NCBI RefSeq assembly: GCF_988243305.1
Contig: NZ_OZ547136.1
Length of the DNA: 64,000 nucleotides
Reading direction: 5' to 3' (one strand)
Part shown: piece after piece, positions 38,607 through 46,267 of the stretch
Layout of the letters: each line of letters opens with the position of its first letter
Position numbering within the stretch: the stretch's first letter is position 1
Program-made: the position numbers and the translations under genes
Notes under the pieces: generated by a model
Told to the model about the DNA's origin: nothing
What the model saw: only the letters and a program-made list of their open reading frames with translations
Databases searched by the model: none

Positions 38607-38650
38607 CAGATGTGGTTATACTCGATCAACATTCAATGAAAGGAGGCAGT

Positions 38651-39079
38651 ATGGCAGTTTCAGCAAGAAATCAATTAACCGGAACGGTTAGCGCAGTAGC
38701 AATGGGCGCTGTGAATGATGAAGTAGAACTGACGCTGGCAGGTGGTGCAAAACTGGTGGCAATTGTGACTCACAGCAGCCAGCAGGCTCTTGGTCTGGCA
38801 AAAGGGAAAGAAGCGATTGCCCTGATTAAAGCCCCGTGGGTCACGCTGGCAACGGAAGACTGTGGACTGAAATTCTCTGCTCGCAACCAATTTGCTGGCA
38901 GCGTGTCGACAATCACCGAAGGCGCAGTGAACGCCACTGTCCATATCAAAACGGATGCGGGTTTTGAAATTGTGGCAGTGGTAACAAATGAAAGTCAGGA
39001 TGAAATGAAACTCACCACTGGCTCGCGCGTTATTGCATTGATCAAAGCATCAGCCATCCTGATTGCCACCAAAGCGTAA
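38651..39079 (+). CDS. Tandem TOBE-domain (di-Mop) molybdate/tungstate-binding-like protein
   Basis: About 142 aa from MAVSARNQL, preceded by AGGAGG. Two internal repeats of about 70 aa (SARNQLTGTVS...AIALIKAPWVTLA and SARNQFAGSVS...VIALIKASAILIA) match the Mop/TOBE fold signature. Confidence 0.75.
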   Translation: MAVSARNQLTGTVSAVAMGAVNDEVELTLAGGAKLVAIVTHSSQQALGLAKGKEAIALIKAPWVTLATEDCGLKFSARNQFAGSVSTITEGAVNATVHIKTDAGFEIVAVVTNESQDEMKLTTGSRVIALIKASAILIATKA

Positions 39080-39127: not shown

Positions 39128-39462
39128 GGACGATATTTTTCTGGCAACTCCGGCACCGGACGCTTGTCATCGATGAGATGACGCACGGTTAAGATCGGAT
39201 GACGCCACAGCATTCGCGGCCCAGCCCAACGCATAATCTGTTTCATCTCTTCACGCTTTGCAGGCTGGTAACAGTGCACCGGACACTGCTTACAGGCTGG
39301 TTTCTCTTCGCCGAACACACATTTATCCAGCCGCTTTTGCGCGTAAGTAAACAACGCCTCATAATGCTCCGGCTCCGCTGACGCCTGCGGGCATTTCGCT
39401 TGATAAAGATCGATCATTTTTTTAATCGTCAGTTTTTCACGAGAGATACGCTTGCCGGACAT
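39118..39462 (-). CDS. ygbA: YgbA (nitrosative-stress-induced, Cys-rich small protein)
   Basis: 114 aa MSGKRISREKLTIKKMIDLYQAKCPQ... recognised as YgbA. Confidence 0.88.
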   Translation of the reverse strand: MSGKRISREKLTIKKMIDLYQAKCPQASAEPEHYEALFTYAQKRLDKCVFGEEKPACKQCPVHCYQPAKREEMKQIMRWAGPRMLWRHPILTVRHLIDDKRPVPELPEKYRPKK

Positions 39463-39748
39463 GCTGCCTCCATACTCTTAAGGTGTATTTATATTACAAC
39501 TTAATTTGAAAGGGGACTATGGCTCTGAAGGAGGAGGTTTATTCAACCGACGCAATTTTGCGTACCTGCTTCATAAGCATCACGCAAAAGCTGCAAAACA
39601 GCATCTTTCCCGGAATCACCATCAAGAACTCGCCGTTCGCTTCTTCCCCTGAAATGATTAACTCCGGTATCATGTGCGCCTTATGTGATTACAACGAAAA
39701 TAAAAACCATCACACCCCATTTAATATCAGGGAACCGGACATAACCCC

Positions 39749-42310
39749 ATGAGTGCAATAGAAAATTTCGATGCCCATACGCCCATGATGCAGCAGTATC
39801 TCAAGCTGAAAGCCCAGCATCCCGAGATCCTGCTGTTTTACCGGATGGGTGATTTTTATGAACTGTTTTATGACGACGCAAAACGCGCGTCGCAACTGCT
39901 GGATATTTCACTGACCAAACGCGGTGCTTCGGCGGGAGAGCCGATCCCGATGGCGGGGATCCCCTACCATGCGGTGGAAAACTACCTCGCCAAACTGGTG
40001 AATCAGGGCGAGTCCGTTGCCATCTGCGAACAAATTGGCGATCCGGCGACCAGCAAAGGTCCGGTTGAGCGCAAAGTTGTGCGTATCGTTACGCCGGGCA
40101 CCATCAGCGATGAAGCCCTGTTACAAGAGCGCCAGGACAATCTGCTGGCGGCTATCTGGCAGGACAGCAAAGGTTTCGGCTACGCGACGCTGGATATCAG
40201 TTCCGGTCGTTTTCGCCTGAGCGAACCGGCTGACCGGGAAACGATGGCGGCAGAACTGCAACGCACTAATCCGGCGGAACTGCTATATGCAGAAGATTTT
40301 GCTGAAATGTCGTTAATTGAAGGTCGTCGCGGTCTGCGCCGTCGTCCGCTGTGGGAGTTTGAAATCGACACCGCGCGCCAGCAGTTGAATCTGCAATTTG
40401 GCACCCGCGATCTGGTCGGTTTTGGCGTCGAGAACGCGCCGCGCGGACTTTGTGCTGCCGGTTGTCTGTTGCAGTATGCGAAAGATACTCAACGCACGAC
40501 CCTGCCGCATATTCGTTCTATCACCATGGAACGTGAGCAGGACAGCATCATTATGGATGCCGCGACACGTCGTAACCTGGAAATTACTCAGAACCTGGCG
40601 GGCGGTGCGGAAAACACGCTGGCTTCAGTGCTCGACTGCACTGTAACGCCAATGGGTAGTCGTATGCTGAAACGCTGGCTGCATATGCCAGTGCGCGATA
40701 CCCGCGTGTTGCTTGAGCGCCAGCAAACTATTGGCGCATTGCAGGATTTCACCGCCGAGCTACAGCCGGTGCTGCGTCAGGTCGGCGACCTGGAACGTAT
40801 TCTGGCACGTCTGGCTTTACGAACTGCTCGCCCACGCGATCTGGCCCGTATGCGTCACGCTTTCCAGCAACTGCCGGAGCTGCGTGCGCAGTTAGAAAAT
40901 GTCGATAGCGCTCCGGTACAGGCGCTGCGTGAGAAGATGGGTGAGTTTGCCGAACTGCGCGATCTGCTGGAGCGGGCCATTATCGACACACCGCCGGTAC
41001 TGGTGCGCGACGGTGGTGTTATCGCATCGGGCTATAACGAAGAGCTGGATGAGTGGCGCGCGCTGGCTGACGGCGCGACCGATTATCTGGAGCGTCTGGA
41101 AGTCCGCGAGCGTGAACGTACCGGCCTGGACACGCTGAAAGTTGGCTTTAATGCGGTGCACGGCTACTACATTCAGATCAGCCGTGGACAAAGCCATCTG
41201 GCCCCCATCAATTACATGCGTCGCCAGACGCTGAAAAACGCCGAGCGCTACATTATTCCAGAGCTAAAAGAGTACGAAGACAAAGTTCTCACCTCAAAAG
41301 GCAAAGCACTGGCACTGGAAAAACAACTTTATGAAGAGCTGTTCGACCTGCTGTTGCCGCATCTGGAAGCGTTGCAACAGAGCGCGAGCGCGCTGGCGGA
41401 ACTTGATGTGCTGGTTAACCTGGCGGAACGGGCCTATACCCTGAACTACACCTGCCCGACCTTCATTGATAAACCGGGTATTCGCATCACCGAAGGTCGC
41501 CATCCGGTGGTTGAACAGGTACTGAACGAGCCATTTATCGCCAACCCGCTGAACCTGTCGCCGCAGCGTCGCATGTTGATCATTACCGGTCCGAATATGG
41601 GCGGTAAAAGTACCTATATGCGCCAGACCGCACTGATTGCGCTGATGGCCTACATCGGCAGCTATGTACCGGCACAAAAAGTCGAGATTGGACCTATCGA
41701 CCGTATCTTCACCCGCGTAGGGGCAGCGGATGATCTGGCATCCGGGCGTTCAACCTTTATGGTGGAGATGACCGAAACCGCCAATATTCTGCATAACGCC
41801 ACCGAGTACAGTCTGGTACTGATGGATGAGATTGGGCGCGGGACGTCCACTTACGATGGTCTGTCGCTGGCGTGGGCGTGCGCGGAAAATCTGGCGAATA
41901 AGATTAAAGCGTTGACGTTGTTTGCCACCCACTATTTCGAGCTGACCCAGTTACCGGAGAAAATGGAAGGCGTCGCCAACGTGCATCTCGATGCACTGGA
42001 GCACGGCGACACCATTGCCTTTATGCACAGCGTGCAGGATGGCGCGGCGAGCAAAAGCTACGGCCTGGCGGTTGCAGCTCTGGCGGGCGTGCCAAAAGAG
42101 GTTATTAAGCGCGCACGGCAAAAACTGCGTGAGCTGGAAAGCATTTCGCCGAACGCCGCCGCGACACAGGTCGATGGCACGCAGATGTCGCTGCTTTCAG
42201 TGCCGGAAGAAACCTCGCCCGCGGTGGAAGCGCTGGAAAATCTCGACCCGGATTCACTCACTCCGCGCCAGGCGCTGGAGTGGATTTATCGGTTGAAGAG
42301 TCTGGTATAA
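39749..42310 (+). CDS. mutS: DNA mismatch repair protein MutS
   Basis: 853 aa full-length MutS with Walker [10 protein letters not shown]. Confidence 0.98.
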
Positions 42311-42315
42311 TATTA

Positions 42316-42344
42316 ATGAGCCCCGATTAAACTTCGGGGCTCAT
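42316..42344 (+). terminator. mutS terminator hairpin (ATGAGCCCCG ... CGGGGCTCAT)
   Basis: Perfect 10-bp stem right after the mutS stop, followed by a T-rich sequence. Confidence 0.65.
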
Positions 42345-42414
42345 ATATCTCTTATCCGATAGATAAAAAAGGAGTAAAATAAACACTATTAAGAACAAAA
42401 CATTCAAGAAAAAA

Positions 42415-43278
42415 ATGAGAATAACGATTGCATCAATAATTTTAATAATTAGCGCCACTGCAATAGGCGCCGAAGATACCCCTTCACATTTTGATATTCC
42501 CGAGCAAGTATTAAATAATATTACGAAGGAATCACGAAATAAACTGCAGGATATCATTGCCAAGGCTCAACATGGCGATAAAGCCTCACAAACGGTGATG
42601 GGACTCATATACCTGAATGGTCTATCTGAAAGTCCTTCAGTGAAGGATATAAACAAAGCATTTTATTGGCTCAACCTTGCAGCAAAGCAAAATTATGATG
42701 AAGCTGAATTTTACTTAGGACAGATTTATCATTACGGATATGATAATACGGGGCCTAACTATCGTATTGCGATATACTGGTATGAGAAAGCGGCAGAAAA
42801 AGGGAATGAACAAGCTCAAATAAACTGTGCGAATATTTATCAATTTGGCCCACAGGAATTCCAAAACATTAACAAAGCCAAGTATTGGCTTCAGAAAGCA
42901 GTACAGAAGGACAATCCTATTGCACATGCAAACTTAGGGATTATCGGAATTCAAGAGAATAAGTATGCTGAAGCTATCCCTCACTTAAAAATAGCGGCAG
43001 AAAAGGGTCAGCGACTCGGCCAATATAATTACGGGACACTTTTTTTTAATGGTCAGGGCGTTCCCAAAGATATACGACAGGCTAAATACTGGTTTGAGAA
43101 AGCTGCTACTCAAAACTTACCTATTGCACAAATTACTTTAGGACAAATTTATGCCTGGGGGCTTGATGAAAATGGCATAAATAAAGAAGAAGCGTTGCTC
43201 TGGTTAAATAAAGCCAAAGCCCAAGGTCAATTTACTGATAAACAGATCAACGCCATTATTTCAAAAAAAATAGACTAA
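42415..43278 (+). CDS. Secreted Sel1-like repeat (SLR/TPR-like) protein
   Basis: 287 aa with signal-peptide-like N-terminus MRITIASIILIISATAIGA and at least five Sel1 motifs (e.g. KAFYWLNLAAKQNYDEAEFYLGQIYHYG, IAIYWYEKAAEKGNEQAQINCANIYQFG, QAKYWFEKAATQNLPIAQITLGQIYAWG). Markedly AT-rich compared with the flanks. Confidence 0.8.
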   Translation: MRITIASIILIISATAIGAEDTPSHFDIPEQVLNNITKESRNKLQDIIAKAQHGDKASQTVMGLIYLNGLSESPSVKDINKAFYWLNLAAKQNYDEAEFYLGQIYHYGYDNTGPNYRIAIYWYEKAAEKGNEQAQINCANIYQFGPQEFQNINKAKYWLQKAVQKDNPIAHANLGIIGIQENKYAEAIPHLKIAAEKGQRLGQYNYGTLFFNGQGVPKDIRQAKYWFEKAATQNLPIAQITLGQIYAWGLDENGINKEEALLWLNKAKAQGQFTDKQINAIISKKID

Positions 43279-43290
43279 CTCCAAACCAAA

Positions 43291-43959
43291 ATGCTCAAAT
43301 CAATGCCATCTATTCGCTATCACAAAATAGAATCATTTAATTATCGCCATATATGGGCCGTTGGTGATATTCATGGCGATTATCAATTATTACAATCCCG
43401 CTTACACCAACTCTCTTTTTGCCCCTAAACTGACTTACTTATTTCCGTAGGCGATAATATTGATCGTGGGCCGGATAGTCTTAACGTGCTACGCCTGTTA
43501 AACCAGCCCTGGTTTACATCGGTTAAAGGCAACCACGAGGCAATGGCGCTTGATGCCTTCGCGACTGGCGATGGCAATATGTGGCTTGCCAGTGGCGGTG
43601 ACTGGTTCTTTGAGTTAAATGATTCAGAACAAAAAGAAGCAATAGACCTGTTGCTTCGCTTTCATCATCTTCCGCATATTATAGAAATCACTAACGATAT
43701 TATAAAATATGTTATCGCACATGCAGATTATCCGGGTGATGAATATCAGTTTGGCAAGGAAGTAGCGGAAAGAGAGGTACTCTGGCCTGTTGATCGCGTG
43801 CAGAAATCACTCAAAGGCGAGTTAAAAGAAATAAACGGTGCCGACTGTTTTATCTTCGGGCATATGATGTTTACAAATATCCAGACATTTGCCAATCAGG
43901 TTTATATTGATACCGGCTCGCCGGAAAGCGGGCGGTTATCGTTTTATAAAATAAAATGA
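43291..43959 (+). pseudogene. pphB: Ser/Thr protein phosphatase 2 (PP-lambda family), interrupted by in-frame TAA at about 43426-43428
   Basis: Frame reads MLKSMPSIRYHKIESFNYRHIWAVGDIHGDYQLLQSRLHQLSFCP-stop-TDLLISVGDNIDRGPDSLNVLRLLNQPWFTSVKGNHEAMA...; the stop lies between the GDxHG and GDxxDRG metallophosphatase motifs. Confidence 0.8.
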
Positions 43960-43963
43960 CAAG

Positions 43964-44002
43964 ACCGGGTAAGGCAAAGCCTCTACCCGGCACTTTTTTA
44001 TT
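43964..44002 (+). terminator. Hairpin (CCGGGTA ... TACCCGG) with T-tract, between convergent pphB and the decarboxylase operon
   Basis: Inverted repeat followed by CTTTTTTATT. Confidence 0.55.
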
Positions 44003-44237
44003 AACGCTTATCTGCCACCAGCAGTGGCGGAATGCTCGGCACCATTGGCGCGTCATCAATATCTTTCTGCGTCATGCGGAACGCTTCGGGATAATGTTCG
44101 CGGCTGGTGCGGCGCAGCGGTTCGGTATCGCGCCAGGTATAGAGGCAATGCTGGCACTGGTAGACCGTCCAGACATCTTTTACCGGCGATTTCGCCATCA
44201 CTTCAATCTGTTCATCAGCACAACGTGGACAAATCAT
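44001..44237 (-). CDS. Small subunit of UbiD-type non-oxidative hydroxyarylic acid decarboxylase (BsdD/VdcD-like)
   Basis: 78 aa MICPRCADEQIEVMAKSPVKDVWTVYQCQHCLYTWRDTEP with CxxC ... CxxC zinc-ribbon signature; resembles B. subtilis BsdD as I recall it. Confidence 0.8.
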   Translation of the reverse strand: MICPRCADEQIEVMAKSPVKDVWTVYQCQHCLYTWRDTEPLRRTSREHYPEAFRMTQKDIDDAPMVPSIPPLLVADKR

Positions 44238-44247
44238 CTTGTTCTCC

Positions 44248-45675
44248 TTATTGACGTGCGGCCAGCATAGCGGTCAGTTTTTCAGCCCAGGCTTTGGTTT
44301 CCGGTAAATCCACCACCGGCTGGCTGTAGTGACCACGGTTGTCCGGGGCGACAGGCGTGGTGGCGTCGATAATCAGCTTGTCGGTGATACCGGCCGGGCT
44401 TGAGCCGGGGTCGAGTTCCAGCACGGACATATTCGGCAACTGCACCAAATCCCCTGCCGGGTTCACTTTCGAAGAGAGCGCCCACATCACCTGCGGCAGG
44501 TTGAACGGATCAACGTCTTCATCGACCATAATCACCATCTTCACGTAGCCCAGACCGTGTGGCGTGGTCATCGCACGCAGGCCCACCGCGCGGGCAAAGC
44601 CACCGTAGCGTTTTTTGGTGGAGATAATCGCCAGCAGGCCGTGGGTGTACATGGCGTTCACCGCCTGCACTTCCGGGAACTCGGCTTTCAGTTGCTGATA
44701 CAGCGGCACGCAGGTGGCTGGCCCCATCAGGTAGTCGATTTCTGTCCACGGCATGCCGAGGTACAGCGATTCGAAAATCGGCCTGGTGCGGTAAGAGACT
44801 TTATCGATACGCACCACGGTCATGTTACGCCCGCCGGAGTAGTGCCCGGTAAACTCACCGAACGGCCCTTCGATTTCGCGTTTACGACTTTCGATGACCC
44901 CTTCGAGGATCACTTCTGAACCCCACGGCACATCAAAACCAGTCAGCGGGGCGGTGGCGATCGGGTACGGGCTTTCACGCAGCGCGCCTGCCATTTCGTA
45001 CTCGGACTGATCATATTTCAGCGGCGTGGCCCCCATCAGCGTGATGATCGGATCGTTACCCAAGGTGATGGCAATCGGCAGATCTTCACCGCGTTCTTCC
45101 GCTTTATGCAGATGCAGGGCGATATCGTGCATCGGCACCGGTTGCAGGCCGAGCTTACGTTTGCCCTTCACTTCCATACGATAGATACCGACGTTCTGCT
45201 TGCCGAAGTTATCCGGGTCGAGCGGATCGCGGGAAACCACGCACGCTTTGTCGAGATAGAAACCGCCATCGCCATCGTTTAAACGAAACAGCGGCAGGAT
45301 ATCGAACAGGTTGATCTCGTCGCCATCGACGGTGTTCTGCGCCCAGGCTGGATTGGCGCGGCGCTCCGGGGCAATCGGGAAGTTATCCCAGCGGCGGATA
45401 AACTCATCAATCTGCTTTTTGACCGGGGTGTTTGGCGGCAGGCCGAGGGAAATCGCGTGGTTCTGCCAGGAACCGATGGTATTCATCGCCACACGGGCAT
45501 CGGTAAAGCCGCGAATATTGTCAAACCACAGCGCGGGCGCGCCGTCGCCGATACGCCCGGTGGCGTTAGCTGCTGCTGCCAGATCCGGTTCCGCGTTCAC
45601 CTCTTCGCTGATTTTCAGTAACTGTCCGTGGTCATCAAGCGCCTGTAAAAAGCTGCGTAAATCATCAAATGCCAT
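44248..45675 (-). CDS. UbiD-family (prFMN-dependent) aromatic acid decarboxylase, BsdC/VdcC-like
   Basis: 475 aa with the full-length UbiD fold; sits in operon between the UbiX-like and small-subunit genes. Confidence 0.85.
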   Translation of the reverse strand: MAFDDLRSFLQALDDHGQLLKISEEVNAEPDLAAAANATGRIGDGAPALWFDNIRGFTDARVAMNTIGSWQNHAISLGLPPNTPVKKQIDEFIRRWDNFPIAPERRANPAWAQNTVDGDEINLFDILPLFRLNDGDGGFYLDKACVVSRDPLDPDNFGKQNVGIYRMEVKGKRKLGLQPVPMHDIALHLHKAEERGEDLPIAITLGNDPIITLMGATPLKYDQSEYEMAGALRESPYPIATAPLTGFDVPWGSEVILEGVIESRKREIEGPFGEFTGHYSGGRNMTVVRIDKVSYRTRPIFESLYLGMPWTEIDYLMGPATCVPLYQQLKAEFPEVQAVNAMYTHGLLAIISTKKRYGGFARAVGLRAMTTPHGLGYVKMVIMVDEDVDPFNLPQVMWALSSKVNPAGDLVQLPNMSVLELDPGSSPAGITDKLIIDATTPVAPDNRGHYSQPVVDLPETKAWAEKLTAMLAARQ

Positions 45676-46267
45676 TATTCATTCTCCTGAGAAAAATTCC
45701 GGACCTGCGGCAATCCTTGCCAGCGCCTGGCGTGGGATGTTCGAGGCCAAATTGATCCAGCACGCGGGCTACCACGTGGTGGACAATGTCATCTACCGTT
45801 TCGGGATGGTTATAAAAGGCAGGCATCGGCGGCACCATCGCCACGCCCATGCGTGAAAGTGCGAGCATATTTTCGAGATGGATGGTGCTAAGCGGCATTT
45901 CACGCGGCACCAGCACTAGTTTGCGGCCTTCTTTGAGCACGACGTCCGCCGCGCGCCCTACCAGGCCATCGGCGTAACCGACACGGATACCGGCGAGCGT
46001 TTTCATACTGCACGGAATAACGATCATGCCGTCGGTACGAAAGGAACCTGAGGAGATGGTCGCCGCCTGATCCGCCGGGTTATGACTGAAGTCTGCGAGG
46101 GCAGCAACATCGCGAGCGCTGTAAGGCGTTTCCAGTTCAATGGTGGTTTTCGCCCACTTCGACATCACCAGATGAGTCTCGACATTCGGCATCTCCCGCA
46201 GCGCTTGCAGTAATGCCACCCCAAGAGGCGCACCGGTAGCCCCTGTCATCCCGACGATCAGTCTCAT
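45665..46267 (-). CDS. UbiX/Pad1-family flavin prenyltransferase (BsdB/VdcB-like)
   Basis: 200 aa MRLIVGMTGATGAPLGVALLQAL ... typical UbiX N-terminus; overlaps the start of the UbiD-like gene. Confidence 0.85.
   Translation of the reverse strand: MRLIVGMTGATGAPLGVALLQALREMPNVETHLVMSKWAKTTIELETPYSARDVAALADFSHNPADQAATISSGSFRTDGMIVIPCSMKTLAGIRVGYADGLVGRAADVVLKEGRKLVLVPREMPLSTIHLENMLALSRMGVAMVPPMPAFYNHPETVDDIVHHVVARVLDQFGLEHPTPGAGKDCRRSGIFLRRMNNGI

Follow-up and report, generated by a model that had tools for sequence, protein, structure and literature searches.

The 64,000-nucleotide stretch of contig NZ_OZ547136.1 (NCBI RefSeq assembly GCF_988243305.1) analysed here, hereafter the window, carries between mutS and pphB a gene, sel1 (Gene coordinates 42415..43278, + strand), that Escherichia coli K-12 lacks. 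It is probably a genuine, selectively maintained accessory gene that encodes a Sec-exported envelope scaffold built of Sel1-like repeats (SLRs) and that was exchanged by homologous recombination at the mutS-rpoS hot spot. The gene is already catalogued in RefSeq and UniProt, has not been characterised and belongs to a repeat family that is itself very well known: the exact protein of the window is UniProt B7N6W5 (E. coli UMN026), and the allele of enteroaggregative E. coli (EAEC) 042, which is 99.7% identical to the window protein, is labelled 'tetratricopeptide repeat protein' (WP_001223109.1) and lies between mutS and an intact pphB. No mention of sel1 or of the linked pphB allele was found in literature searches, in which older J Bacteriol papers were not covered.

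The coding sequence, delimited by the list of open reading frames (ORFs), the RefSeq annotation of 042, Pfam and UniProt, is a single long frame with an ATG start and a product of 287 amino acids, as a preliminary description of this DNA had it; the chance of an open frame of 287 codons at the gene's own base composition is approximately 7e-10. The gene has 37.8% GC (32.6% at third codon positions), compared with a window mean of 52.9%, and among 864-bp sliding windows over the 64 kb (mean 53.0% GC, standard deviation 4.0) the minimum, 37.4%, falls inside sel1, in agreement with the AT-rich gene first described between mutS and pphB. The flanks had been called GC-balanced, which fails on the downstream side: mutS has 56.2% GC and pphB 42.0%. 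Because pphB is also AT-rich, the AT-rich tract extends from approximately 42311 to approximately 43960, farther than was first thought. Homology with K-12 breaks off with the stop codon of mutS (42312) and is found again from 43297 onwards, 7 nt ahead of the ATG of pphB (43303); the segment without a K-12 counterpart, 984 bp long (42313..43296, from BLASTN breakpoints against K-12 and a repeat search), replaces the K-12 mutS-pphB spacer, terminator hairpin included. K-12 has only 105 bp between the two genes, and the suspicion that it has no gene here was correct.

Sel1 is a member of the SLR family, with tandem repeats of approximately 36 residues that match the Sel1 hidden Markov model. Pfam Sel1 (PF08238) matches residues 202-234 (E = 6.6e-11), 96-131 (2.6e-9), 58-94 (1.3e-5) and 133-166 (8.3e-5), with a fifth, marginal match at residues 237-271 (E = 0.26). 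An AlphaFold2 model computed from nine orthologues (mean predicted local distance difference test score, pLDDT, 87.6) consists of an N-cap helix, six helix hairpins (residues 56-91, 95-128, 132-163, 168-196, 200-232 and 236-269) and a C-cap helix, the fourth hairpin being one that Pfam missed. The preliminary description had counted at least five Sel1 motifs and proposed a search with the Sel1 model; that search returned strong PF08238 matches, and the count stands, with four significant matches, one weak match and a sixth hairpin in the structure model. The repeats are visible in the DNA as a 108-nt periodicity (family D1 of the repeat search), which together with Pfam, AlphaFold2 and Foldseek places the SLR solenoid at residues 38-283 (42526..43263, + strand). 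A sequence search of the PDB returned EsiB/c5321 (4bwr, 5e-49) as the top match, with SLR proteins from Oxalobacter and Legionella, and SEL1L, coming next, and the top Foldseek matches in the PDB are all SLR crystal structures (E = 1e-10 to 1e-7, template modelling (TM) score 0.6-0.7). The predicted fold, in a confident model, is an alpha/alpha hairpin superhelix.

The N-terminus of Sel1 reads M-R, then 15 hydrophobic residues (Kyte-Doolittle hydropathy above 2 by manual calculation), then SATAIGA/ED, a layout that is identical in all eight orthologues. Residues 1-24 are unstructured in the AlphaFold2 model (pLDDT below 50), and a hydropathy check found neither a lipobox cysteine nor a second hydrophobic segment. 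By this heuristic the leader, with its positive n-region, its hydrophobic core and small residues at -3 and -1, is predicted to be of the classical Sec/signal peptidase I type, cleaved probably at ATA/IG or IGA/ED; the predicted signal peptide, residues 1-19 (MRITIASIILIISATAIGA, 42415..42471, + strand), was assigned from hydropathy, the -3/-1 rule applied by hand, pLDDT and the orthologues. Export of Sel1 by way of this leader would leave it in the periplasm as the default expectation. Thus, of the 'secreted' protein with a signal peptide that was first proposed, the Sec-type leader was found, but 'secreted' goes beyond the evidence of the leader, with which residence in the periplasm is to be expected. 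The mature protein has a single cysteine, C138.

Orthologues of sel1 occupy the same position in other genera. In protein searches, the closest relative is that of Pseudocitrobacter corydidari (91% identity), followed by Citrobacter and a few metagenomic sequences (50-56%), while generic SLR proteins reach 36% or less; the orthologue group is tight and is separated from the generic proteins by a gap. In seven of seven loci examined outside E. coli (P. corydidari, a Pseudocitrobacter metagenome-assembled genome, a widespread Citrobacter allele, C. enshiensis, C. werkmanii and two further assemblies), sel1 comes directly after mutS, with ecdDCB-marR downstream of it; beyond marR stands rpoS in the five Citrobacter-type loci, and other genes in P. 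corydidari. The gene is a resident of the mutS-[variable]-ecdDCB-marR-rpoS region in a group made up of Citrobacter and Pseudocitrobacter. All the orthologues are AT-rich (37-42% GC). The Pseudocitrobacter loci have the sel1-pphB arrangement of E. coli, whereas the Citrobacter loci lack pphB, of which C. enshiensis retains a 48-residue remnant (locus L007, 7735-7878). An ORF of 150-208 amino acids stands in place of pphB in Citrobacter (loci L004-L007 and L012; for example L006, 6982-7443, - strand), and no Pfam match was found for this ORF between sel1 and ecdD. A scan of GTDB species returned two loci, but is a weak test of absence elsewhere because only two exact peptide patterns were used.

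Within E. coli, the region is carried by 181 of 5426 complete genomes (3.3%), always on the chromosome and always with at least 99% identity, and 179 of the 181 carriers hold at least 80% of it. The K-12-type 105-bp spacer is present in 5207 of the 5426, so that the survey of the mutS-pphB junction suggested in the preliminary description finds 96% of complete E. coli genomes without the gene, rather than the same gene in every lineage. Carriers with a published sequence type (ST) are SCU-313 (ST69) and SCU-105 and EcPF15 (ST394), and 042 is also a carrier; the sources include birds, cattle, milk and wastewater, as well as EAEC 042 and urinary ST69 and ST394 isolates. The region is interrupted in a few carriers (strain 135, LSC52 and Z1323HEC0462): in strain 135 (NZ_CP080260.1) only 60% of it matches in one piece and a truncated product of 152 amino acids is on record, and LSC52 has an ISVsa5-family transposase within the 6-kb stretch. 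Between 41500 and 44500, identity of the window to 042 is 99.6-100%, but in the segments to either side (fhlA, mutS 5', ecdC/B and rpoS/nlpD) it is no more than 94.6-98%; carriers differ much less in the sel1-pphB haplotype than in the DNA around it.

The pphB gene that accompanies sel1 (43303..43959, + strand) differs markedly from that of most E. coli, with no more than 84-85% identity to the alleles of K-12, O157 and B2. The synonymous divergence (dS) between the 042-type and K-12-type pphB alleles is 0.72, a value as large as that between the K-12 and Pseudocitrobacter genes (0.73). In the window pphB is a pseudogene, recognised from the list of differences from 042, a probe search and allele divergence: codon 42 is TAA (43426-43428) where 042, with an intact gene, has GAA, confirming that the phosphatase gene is disrupted, as had been stated. 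A 61-nt probe centred on this codon matches 181 genomes, all of which differ from the window at one base, and the nonsense codon thus seems private to the window strain. Because this count equals the number of sel1 carriers, sel1 and the divergent pphB allele are taken as completely linked (181/181), the linkage being read from the two equal counts and not from a record-by-record comparison of the lists.

The divergence of successive genes from their P. corydidari counterparts indicates how this haplotype may have arisen. The dS between the window and P. corydidari is 0.84 for mutS, 0.22 for sel1 and 0.25 for ecdC, and that of pphB (042 allele) is 0.34; in synonymous divergence, the block from the 3' end of mutS through sel1 to pphB lies about four times nearer to Pseudocitrobacter than mutS does. 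In a sliding comparison with Pseudocitrobacter, identity is 81-87% along the body of mutS and climbs to 90-97% from approximately 42000 to 45600, and the last 300 nt or so of mutS are mosaic, being 92% identical to K-12 and 93% to Pseudocitrobacter, compared with 95.9% to K-12 over the first 2200 nt. The lower dS of sel1 and pphB, the orthologues in place in other genera and the linked, foreign-looking pphB allele therefore point to homologous recombination at the mutS-rpoS hot spot, homologous exchange of the entire segment being the most likely way in which sel1 came in (or was kept). The simplest reading of these sequence comparisons is an exchange of the block between a Pseudocitrobacter-like lineage and the ancestor of some phylogroup D E. 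coli. Farther downstream, the ecdC genes of D-type and of O157-type E. coli alike (44248-45675 in the window) share 94.5-95.6% identity with that of Pseudocitrobacter (loci L003, L008 and L010); the whole ecdDCB cluster, beyond sel1-pphB, looks to have been horizontally shared between the genera.

Nothing points to a mobile element. A repeat search found no direct or inverted repeats flanking the 984-bp segment, and neither the ORF list nor the RefSeq annotation shows an integrase, a transposase or insertion sequence (IS), a tRNA gene or an att site near sel1; insertion by a mobile element was ruled out on the absence of repeats, integrase, IS and tRNA. An origin from a phage or plasmid was likewise ruled out: no orthologue was found on phages or true plasmids, where matches remain below 40% identity, and two '99%' plasmid matches proved to be 4.9-Mb chromosomes mislabelled as plasmids. 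The gene had been described as inserted between mutS and pphB; it is indeed absent from K-12 at this place, but 'inserted' is misleading, because the signs of a mobile element are missing, the pphB allele beside it is divergent and linked, and orthologues follow mutS in other genera, all of which fit a recombined haplotype instead.

Conserved candidate signals precede the gene. Beyond mutS (39749..42310, + strand; ORF list, RefSeq counterpart in 042 and identity tables) lies its terminator hairpin, of 11 pairs, 7 of them G-C (42316..42344, + strand; terminator scan, K-12 comparison and alignment), which differs in sequence from the K-12 hairpin; in the upstream alignment a hairpin is kept at the end of mutS in every orthologous locus, each time with a different sequence. 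A candidate -10 box, TAAAAT (42375..42380, + strand; invariant columns 68-75), which is TATAAT in Citrobacter, is conserved in seven of seven loci with coding regions only 58-65% identical, as part of an invariant TA(A/T)AATAA box approximately 35 nt upstream of the sel1 ATG. A motif ATTCAAG (42402..42408, + strand; invariant columns 95-100) lies 7-13 nt before the ATG, in the presumed 5' untranslated region (UTR). Because the -10-like box and ATTCAAG are conserved upstream of sel1 across loci, the alignment supports an independent sel1 promoter with a short 5' UTR.

Downstream, the sel1 stop codon (43276-43278) is separated from the RefSeq-type pphB start (MPSIRY..., 43303) by a spacer of 24 nt (43279..43302, + strand; sequence, terminator scan and Pseudocitrobacter locus coordinates), which corresponds to one of 22 nt in Pseudocitrobacter; the 12 bp first reported is the distance to an upstream in-frame ATG at 43292 and not to the accepted start. 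The terminator scan found no terminator between the two genes, and the K-12 pphB upstream region is absent, since homology to K-12 is regained no more than 7 nt ahead of the ATG, so that co-transcription of sel1 and pphB is plausible, and for the same two reasons transcription of pphB in carriers most likely starts at the sel1 promoter or at promoters within sel1. Between the convergent pphB and ecdD, a hairpin read from the sequence, CCGGGTA...TACCCGG followed by a T run (43965..43999, + strand), is probably a bidirectional terminator; it was not listed by the terminator scan, which has a loop limit of 8 nt. No hidden RNA element was found: a search of 41800-44400 against Rfam gave no match, even with E values as high as 1 admitted.

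That sel1 is a functional gene is argued by its ratio of nonsynonymous to synonymous divergence (dN/dS), approximately 0.2 (0.16-0.21 in four comparisons at three divergence depths), and by the conserved -10 box; furthermore, orthologues about 50% diverged still have 93 invariant positions in common. Characterised SLR relatives bind and modulate partner proteins (ExoR-ExoS, MotX, AlgK, EnhC and EsiB), and by analogy Sel1 is most likely a periplasmic protein-binding adaptor. According to the proposed mechanism, sel1 would have a promoter of its own immediately beyond the mutS terminator, and its transcripts would probably run on into pphB; signal peptidase I would cut off approximately 19 residues of the precursor; and the mature protein of approximately 30 kDa, a non-enzymatic alpha/alpha superhelix of six SLR hairpins, may modulate a partner, some other protein of the envelope or the extracellular space, by holding a segment of it in its groove.

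Several points weigh against this account. A strict consensus promoter scan found no -35/-10 pair upstream of sel1, the Shine-Dalgarno sequence of the gene is weak, and AT-rich DNA is commonly silenced by H-NS, so that sel1 may be off in laboratory conditions; the expression, localisation and partner of the protein are matters that we infer. The transfer may have gone in either direction, into or out of E. coli, and the haplotype may instead, though less probably, be a long-lived ancestral or old balanced polymorphism rather than the product of intergeneric transfer. All carriers of known sequence type fall in phylogroup D, to which 042, UMN026, ST69 and ST394 belong; this assignment rests on four named strains among the 181 carriers.

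Other roles for Sel1 have to be weighed against that of a maintained envelope scaffold. It is unlikely that the protein is a host-directed factor like EsiB or the Legionella proteins LpnE and LceB, released to bind a host protein and to aid colonisation by EAEC and extraintestinal pathogenic E. coli (ExPEC) of phylogroup D. EsiB, which binds secretory IgA, is indeed among its best sequence and fold matches (c5321, 4bwr), as are LceB (8sxq) and LpnE (6deh), and known carriers include pathogens such as EAEC 042 and the urinary ST69 and ST394 isolates; but identity to the three proteins is just 29-31% and falls on the repeat consensus, the ORF list and RefSeq annotation show no secretion-system gene adjoining sel1, a Sec leader alone delivers only to the periplasm, and the gene also occurs in Citrobacter and Pseudocitrobacter and in isolates from birds, cattle, milk and wastewater. 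Quite unlikely is a single module, resembling the control of ExoS by ExoR, in which a periplasmic SLR sensor or adaptor feeds the cytoplasmic PPP-family phosphatase PphB (PrpB), which Missiakas and Raina reportedly linked in 1997 to the response to misfolded envelope proteins. The 24-nt spacer without a terminator, the missing K-12 pphB upstream region, the linkage of the two genes in 181 of 181 E. coli carriers and both Pseudocitrobacter loci, and a weak ExoR profile match would all fit such a module. The pair has nevertheless been decoupled three times: Citrobacter keeps sel1 without pphB (with the 48-residue remnant in C. enshiensis), 96% of E. coli have pphB without sel1, and the window combines an intact sel1 with a pphB that carries a nonsense codon; the ExoR score, moreover, is 32 bits against a cut-off of 450. 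Because sel1 and pphB have been separated repeatedly, an obligatory pairing with PphB is unlikely, and functional coupling of the two is doubtful. The broader proposal of a sel1-pphB cassette for envelope signalling that passes from one enterobacterial genus to another, or of an EsiB-like host-binding factor, whose acquisition by phylogroup D lineages (ST69, ST394 and 042) would contribute to their success as extraintestinal or enteroaggregative pathogens, is distinctly improbable.

That sel1 is a silent passenger, a xenogeneic AT-rich remnant hitch-hiking in the recombination hot spot with no current function, is very improbable. It would account for the lowest-GC stretch in the window, the narrow distribution, the weak ribosome-binding site, the failure of any promoter to pass the consensus scan and the decay of neighbours in the window strain (the pphB nonsense codon and an ecdB frameshift), but not for a dN/dS of about 0.2 over several divergence depths, a frame counted as intact in 179 of 181 carriers (those with at least 80% of the region) and in seven loci of other genera, the 93 invariant residues across orthologues 50% diverged, or the conserved upstream -10 box. 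Scarcely credible is a role as a beta-lactamase or penicillin-binding protein like the Hcp proteins of Helicobacter: the UniRef cluster of B7N6W5 is named 'Beta-lactamase' and HcpC (1ouv) is among the structural matches, but the name is an automatic transfer from Helicobacter Hcp proteins, and Sel1 and HcpC share 19% identity. The defining feature of Hcp proteins is a pair of cysteines in each repeat that form a disulfide, and an Hcp-type protein is rejected because mature Sel1 has one cysteine (C138) and not a pair per repeat.

Other identities were tried and rejected. Profile scores fall far below the cut-offs for MerG (NF033786, 73.1 bits against 350, with no mer genes nearby), MotX (NF047621, 50.8 against 330), AlgK (NF038194, 43.9 against 700, and without the lipobox of AlgK) and ExoR (NF045484, 32 against 450). 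For anti-phage defence, PADLOC gave only a 22-bit, zero-stretch match to PtuA and nothing for PphB; an immunity protein of a type VI secretion system, of the PA5086-5088 type, was dismissed on weak fold matches (TM approximately 0.45) with no effector gene nearby; and Sel1 is not an orthologue of EsiB (c5321), with approximately 29% identity, 287 residues compared with a 467-residue chain, and several overlapping repeat alignments.

The window differs from other genomes elsewhere in this neighbourhood. At the 3' end of ecdB (approximately 45727-45743, - strand), which encodes the UbiX-like subunit B of hydroxyarylic acid decarboxylase, the window is 1 bp shorter than 042 (CTGGCGTG-GGATG compared with CTGGCGTGAGGATG), a deletion that shifts the frame of the last 20 or so codons, giving an ORF of 200 instead of 197 amino acids that overlaps ecdC by 11 nt; either a true lesion or an error in the sequence may be behind it. 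Upstream of mutS, an extra gene with a molbindin-like TOBE domain (38612-39079, + strand) lies between fhlA and ygbA; it is annotated in 042 and absent from O157:H7 G5295, where ygbA directly follows fhlA, and is another small accessory gene beside the mutS-rpoS hot spot. The ygbA-mutS intergenic region (39306-39755) is 92% identical to K-12, compared with approximately 98% on either side, and RefSeq annotates a hypothetical protein of 44 amino acids there in 042 and O157.

The impact of sel1 is modest and leaves current understanding unchallenged. Being nearly invariant, the gene serves as a clean marker for a minority haplotype of E. coli at the mutS-rpoS hot spot, and the apparent exchange between a Pseudocitrobacter-like lineage and E. 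coli, which would also have swapped the pphB allele, adds detail to the classic mosaic evolution of the region. Some SLR proteins, for example EsiB, have come under consideration as antigens, and an exported SLR protein in ST69, ST394 and 042-type pathogens is a reasonable, if unremarkable, candidate for studies of the envelope and of host interaction.

The polymorphic mutS-rpoS region of enteric bacteria is said to have been described by LeClerc/Cebula, Herbelin, Kotewicz, and Culham and Wood. It has been reviewed and typed (PMC4209514), in an article that does not mention sel1. The gene lies within this mosaic region, for which the window holds 'O157-type' content, pphB-ecdDCB(yclC/pad1)-marR(slyA)-rpoS, and displays what appears to be the intergeneric recombination known there. 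The positional orthologues of P. corydidari (91% amino acid identity) and of C. werkmanii, C. enshiensis and other Citrobacter (52-56%) are all annotated 'tetratricopeptide repeat protein', and none in either genus has been characterised; they share with Sel1 a length of 283-287 amino acids, the leader, the six-repeat layout, the 93 invariant residues, the place directly downstream of mutS and the AT-richness, but the Citrobacter loci are without pphB, and the E. coli allele is far closer to the alleles of Pseudocitrobacter than to those of Citrobacter. EsiB of uropathogenic E. coli CFT073 (4bwr) resembles Sel1 as an exported E. coli SLR superhelix and is its best match in both sequence (5e-49) and fold, but has a 467-residue chain of about 11 repeats, compared with six repeats in 287 residues, an identity of approximately 29% that is confined to the repeat consensus, and a different chromosomal locus. 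ExoR of Sinorhizobium, MotX of Vibrio, AlgK of Pseudomonas and MerG, Sec-exported SLR or tetratricopeptide repeat solenoids that bind an envelope partner, offer a mechanistic analogy, although their profile scores are below threshold and the mer operon, flagellar, alginate and exoS/chvI contexts in which they occur are absent from the sel1 locus.

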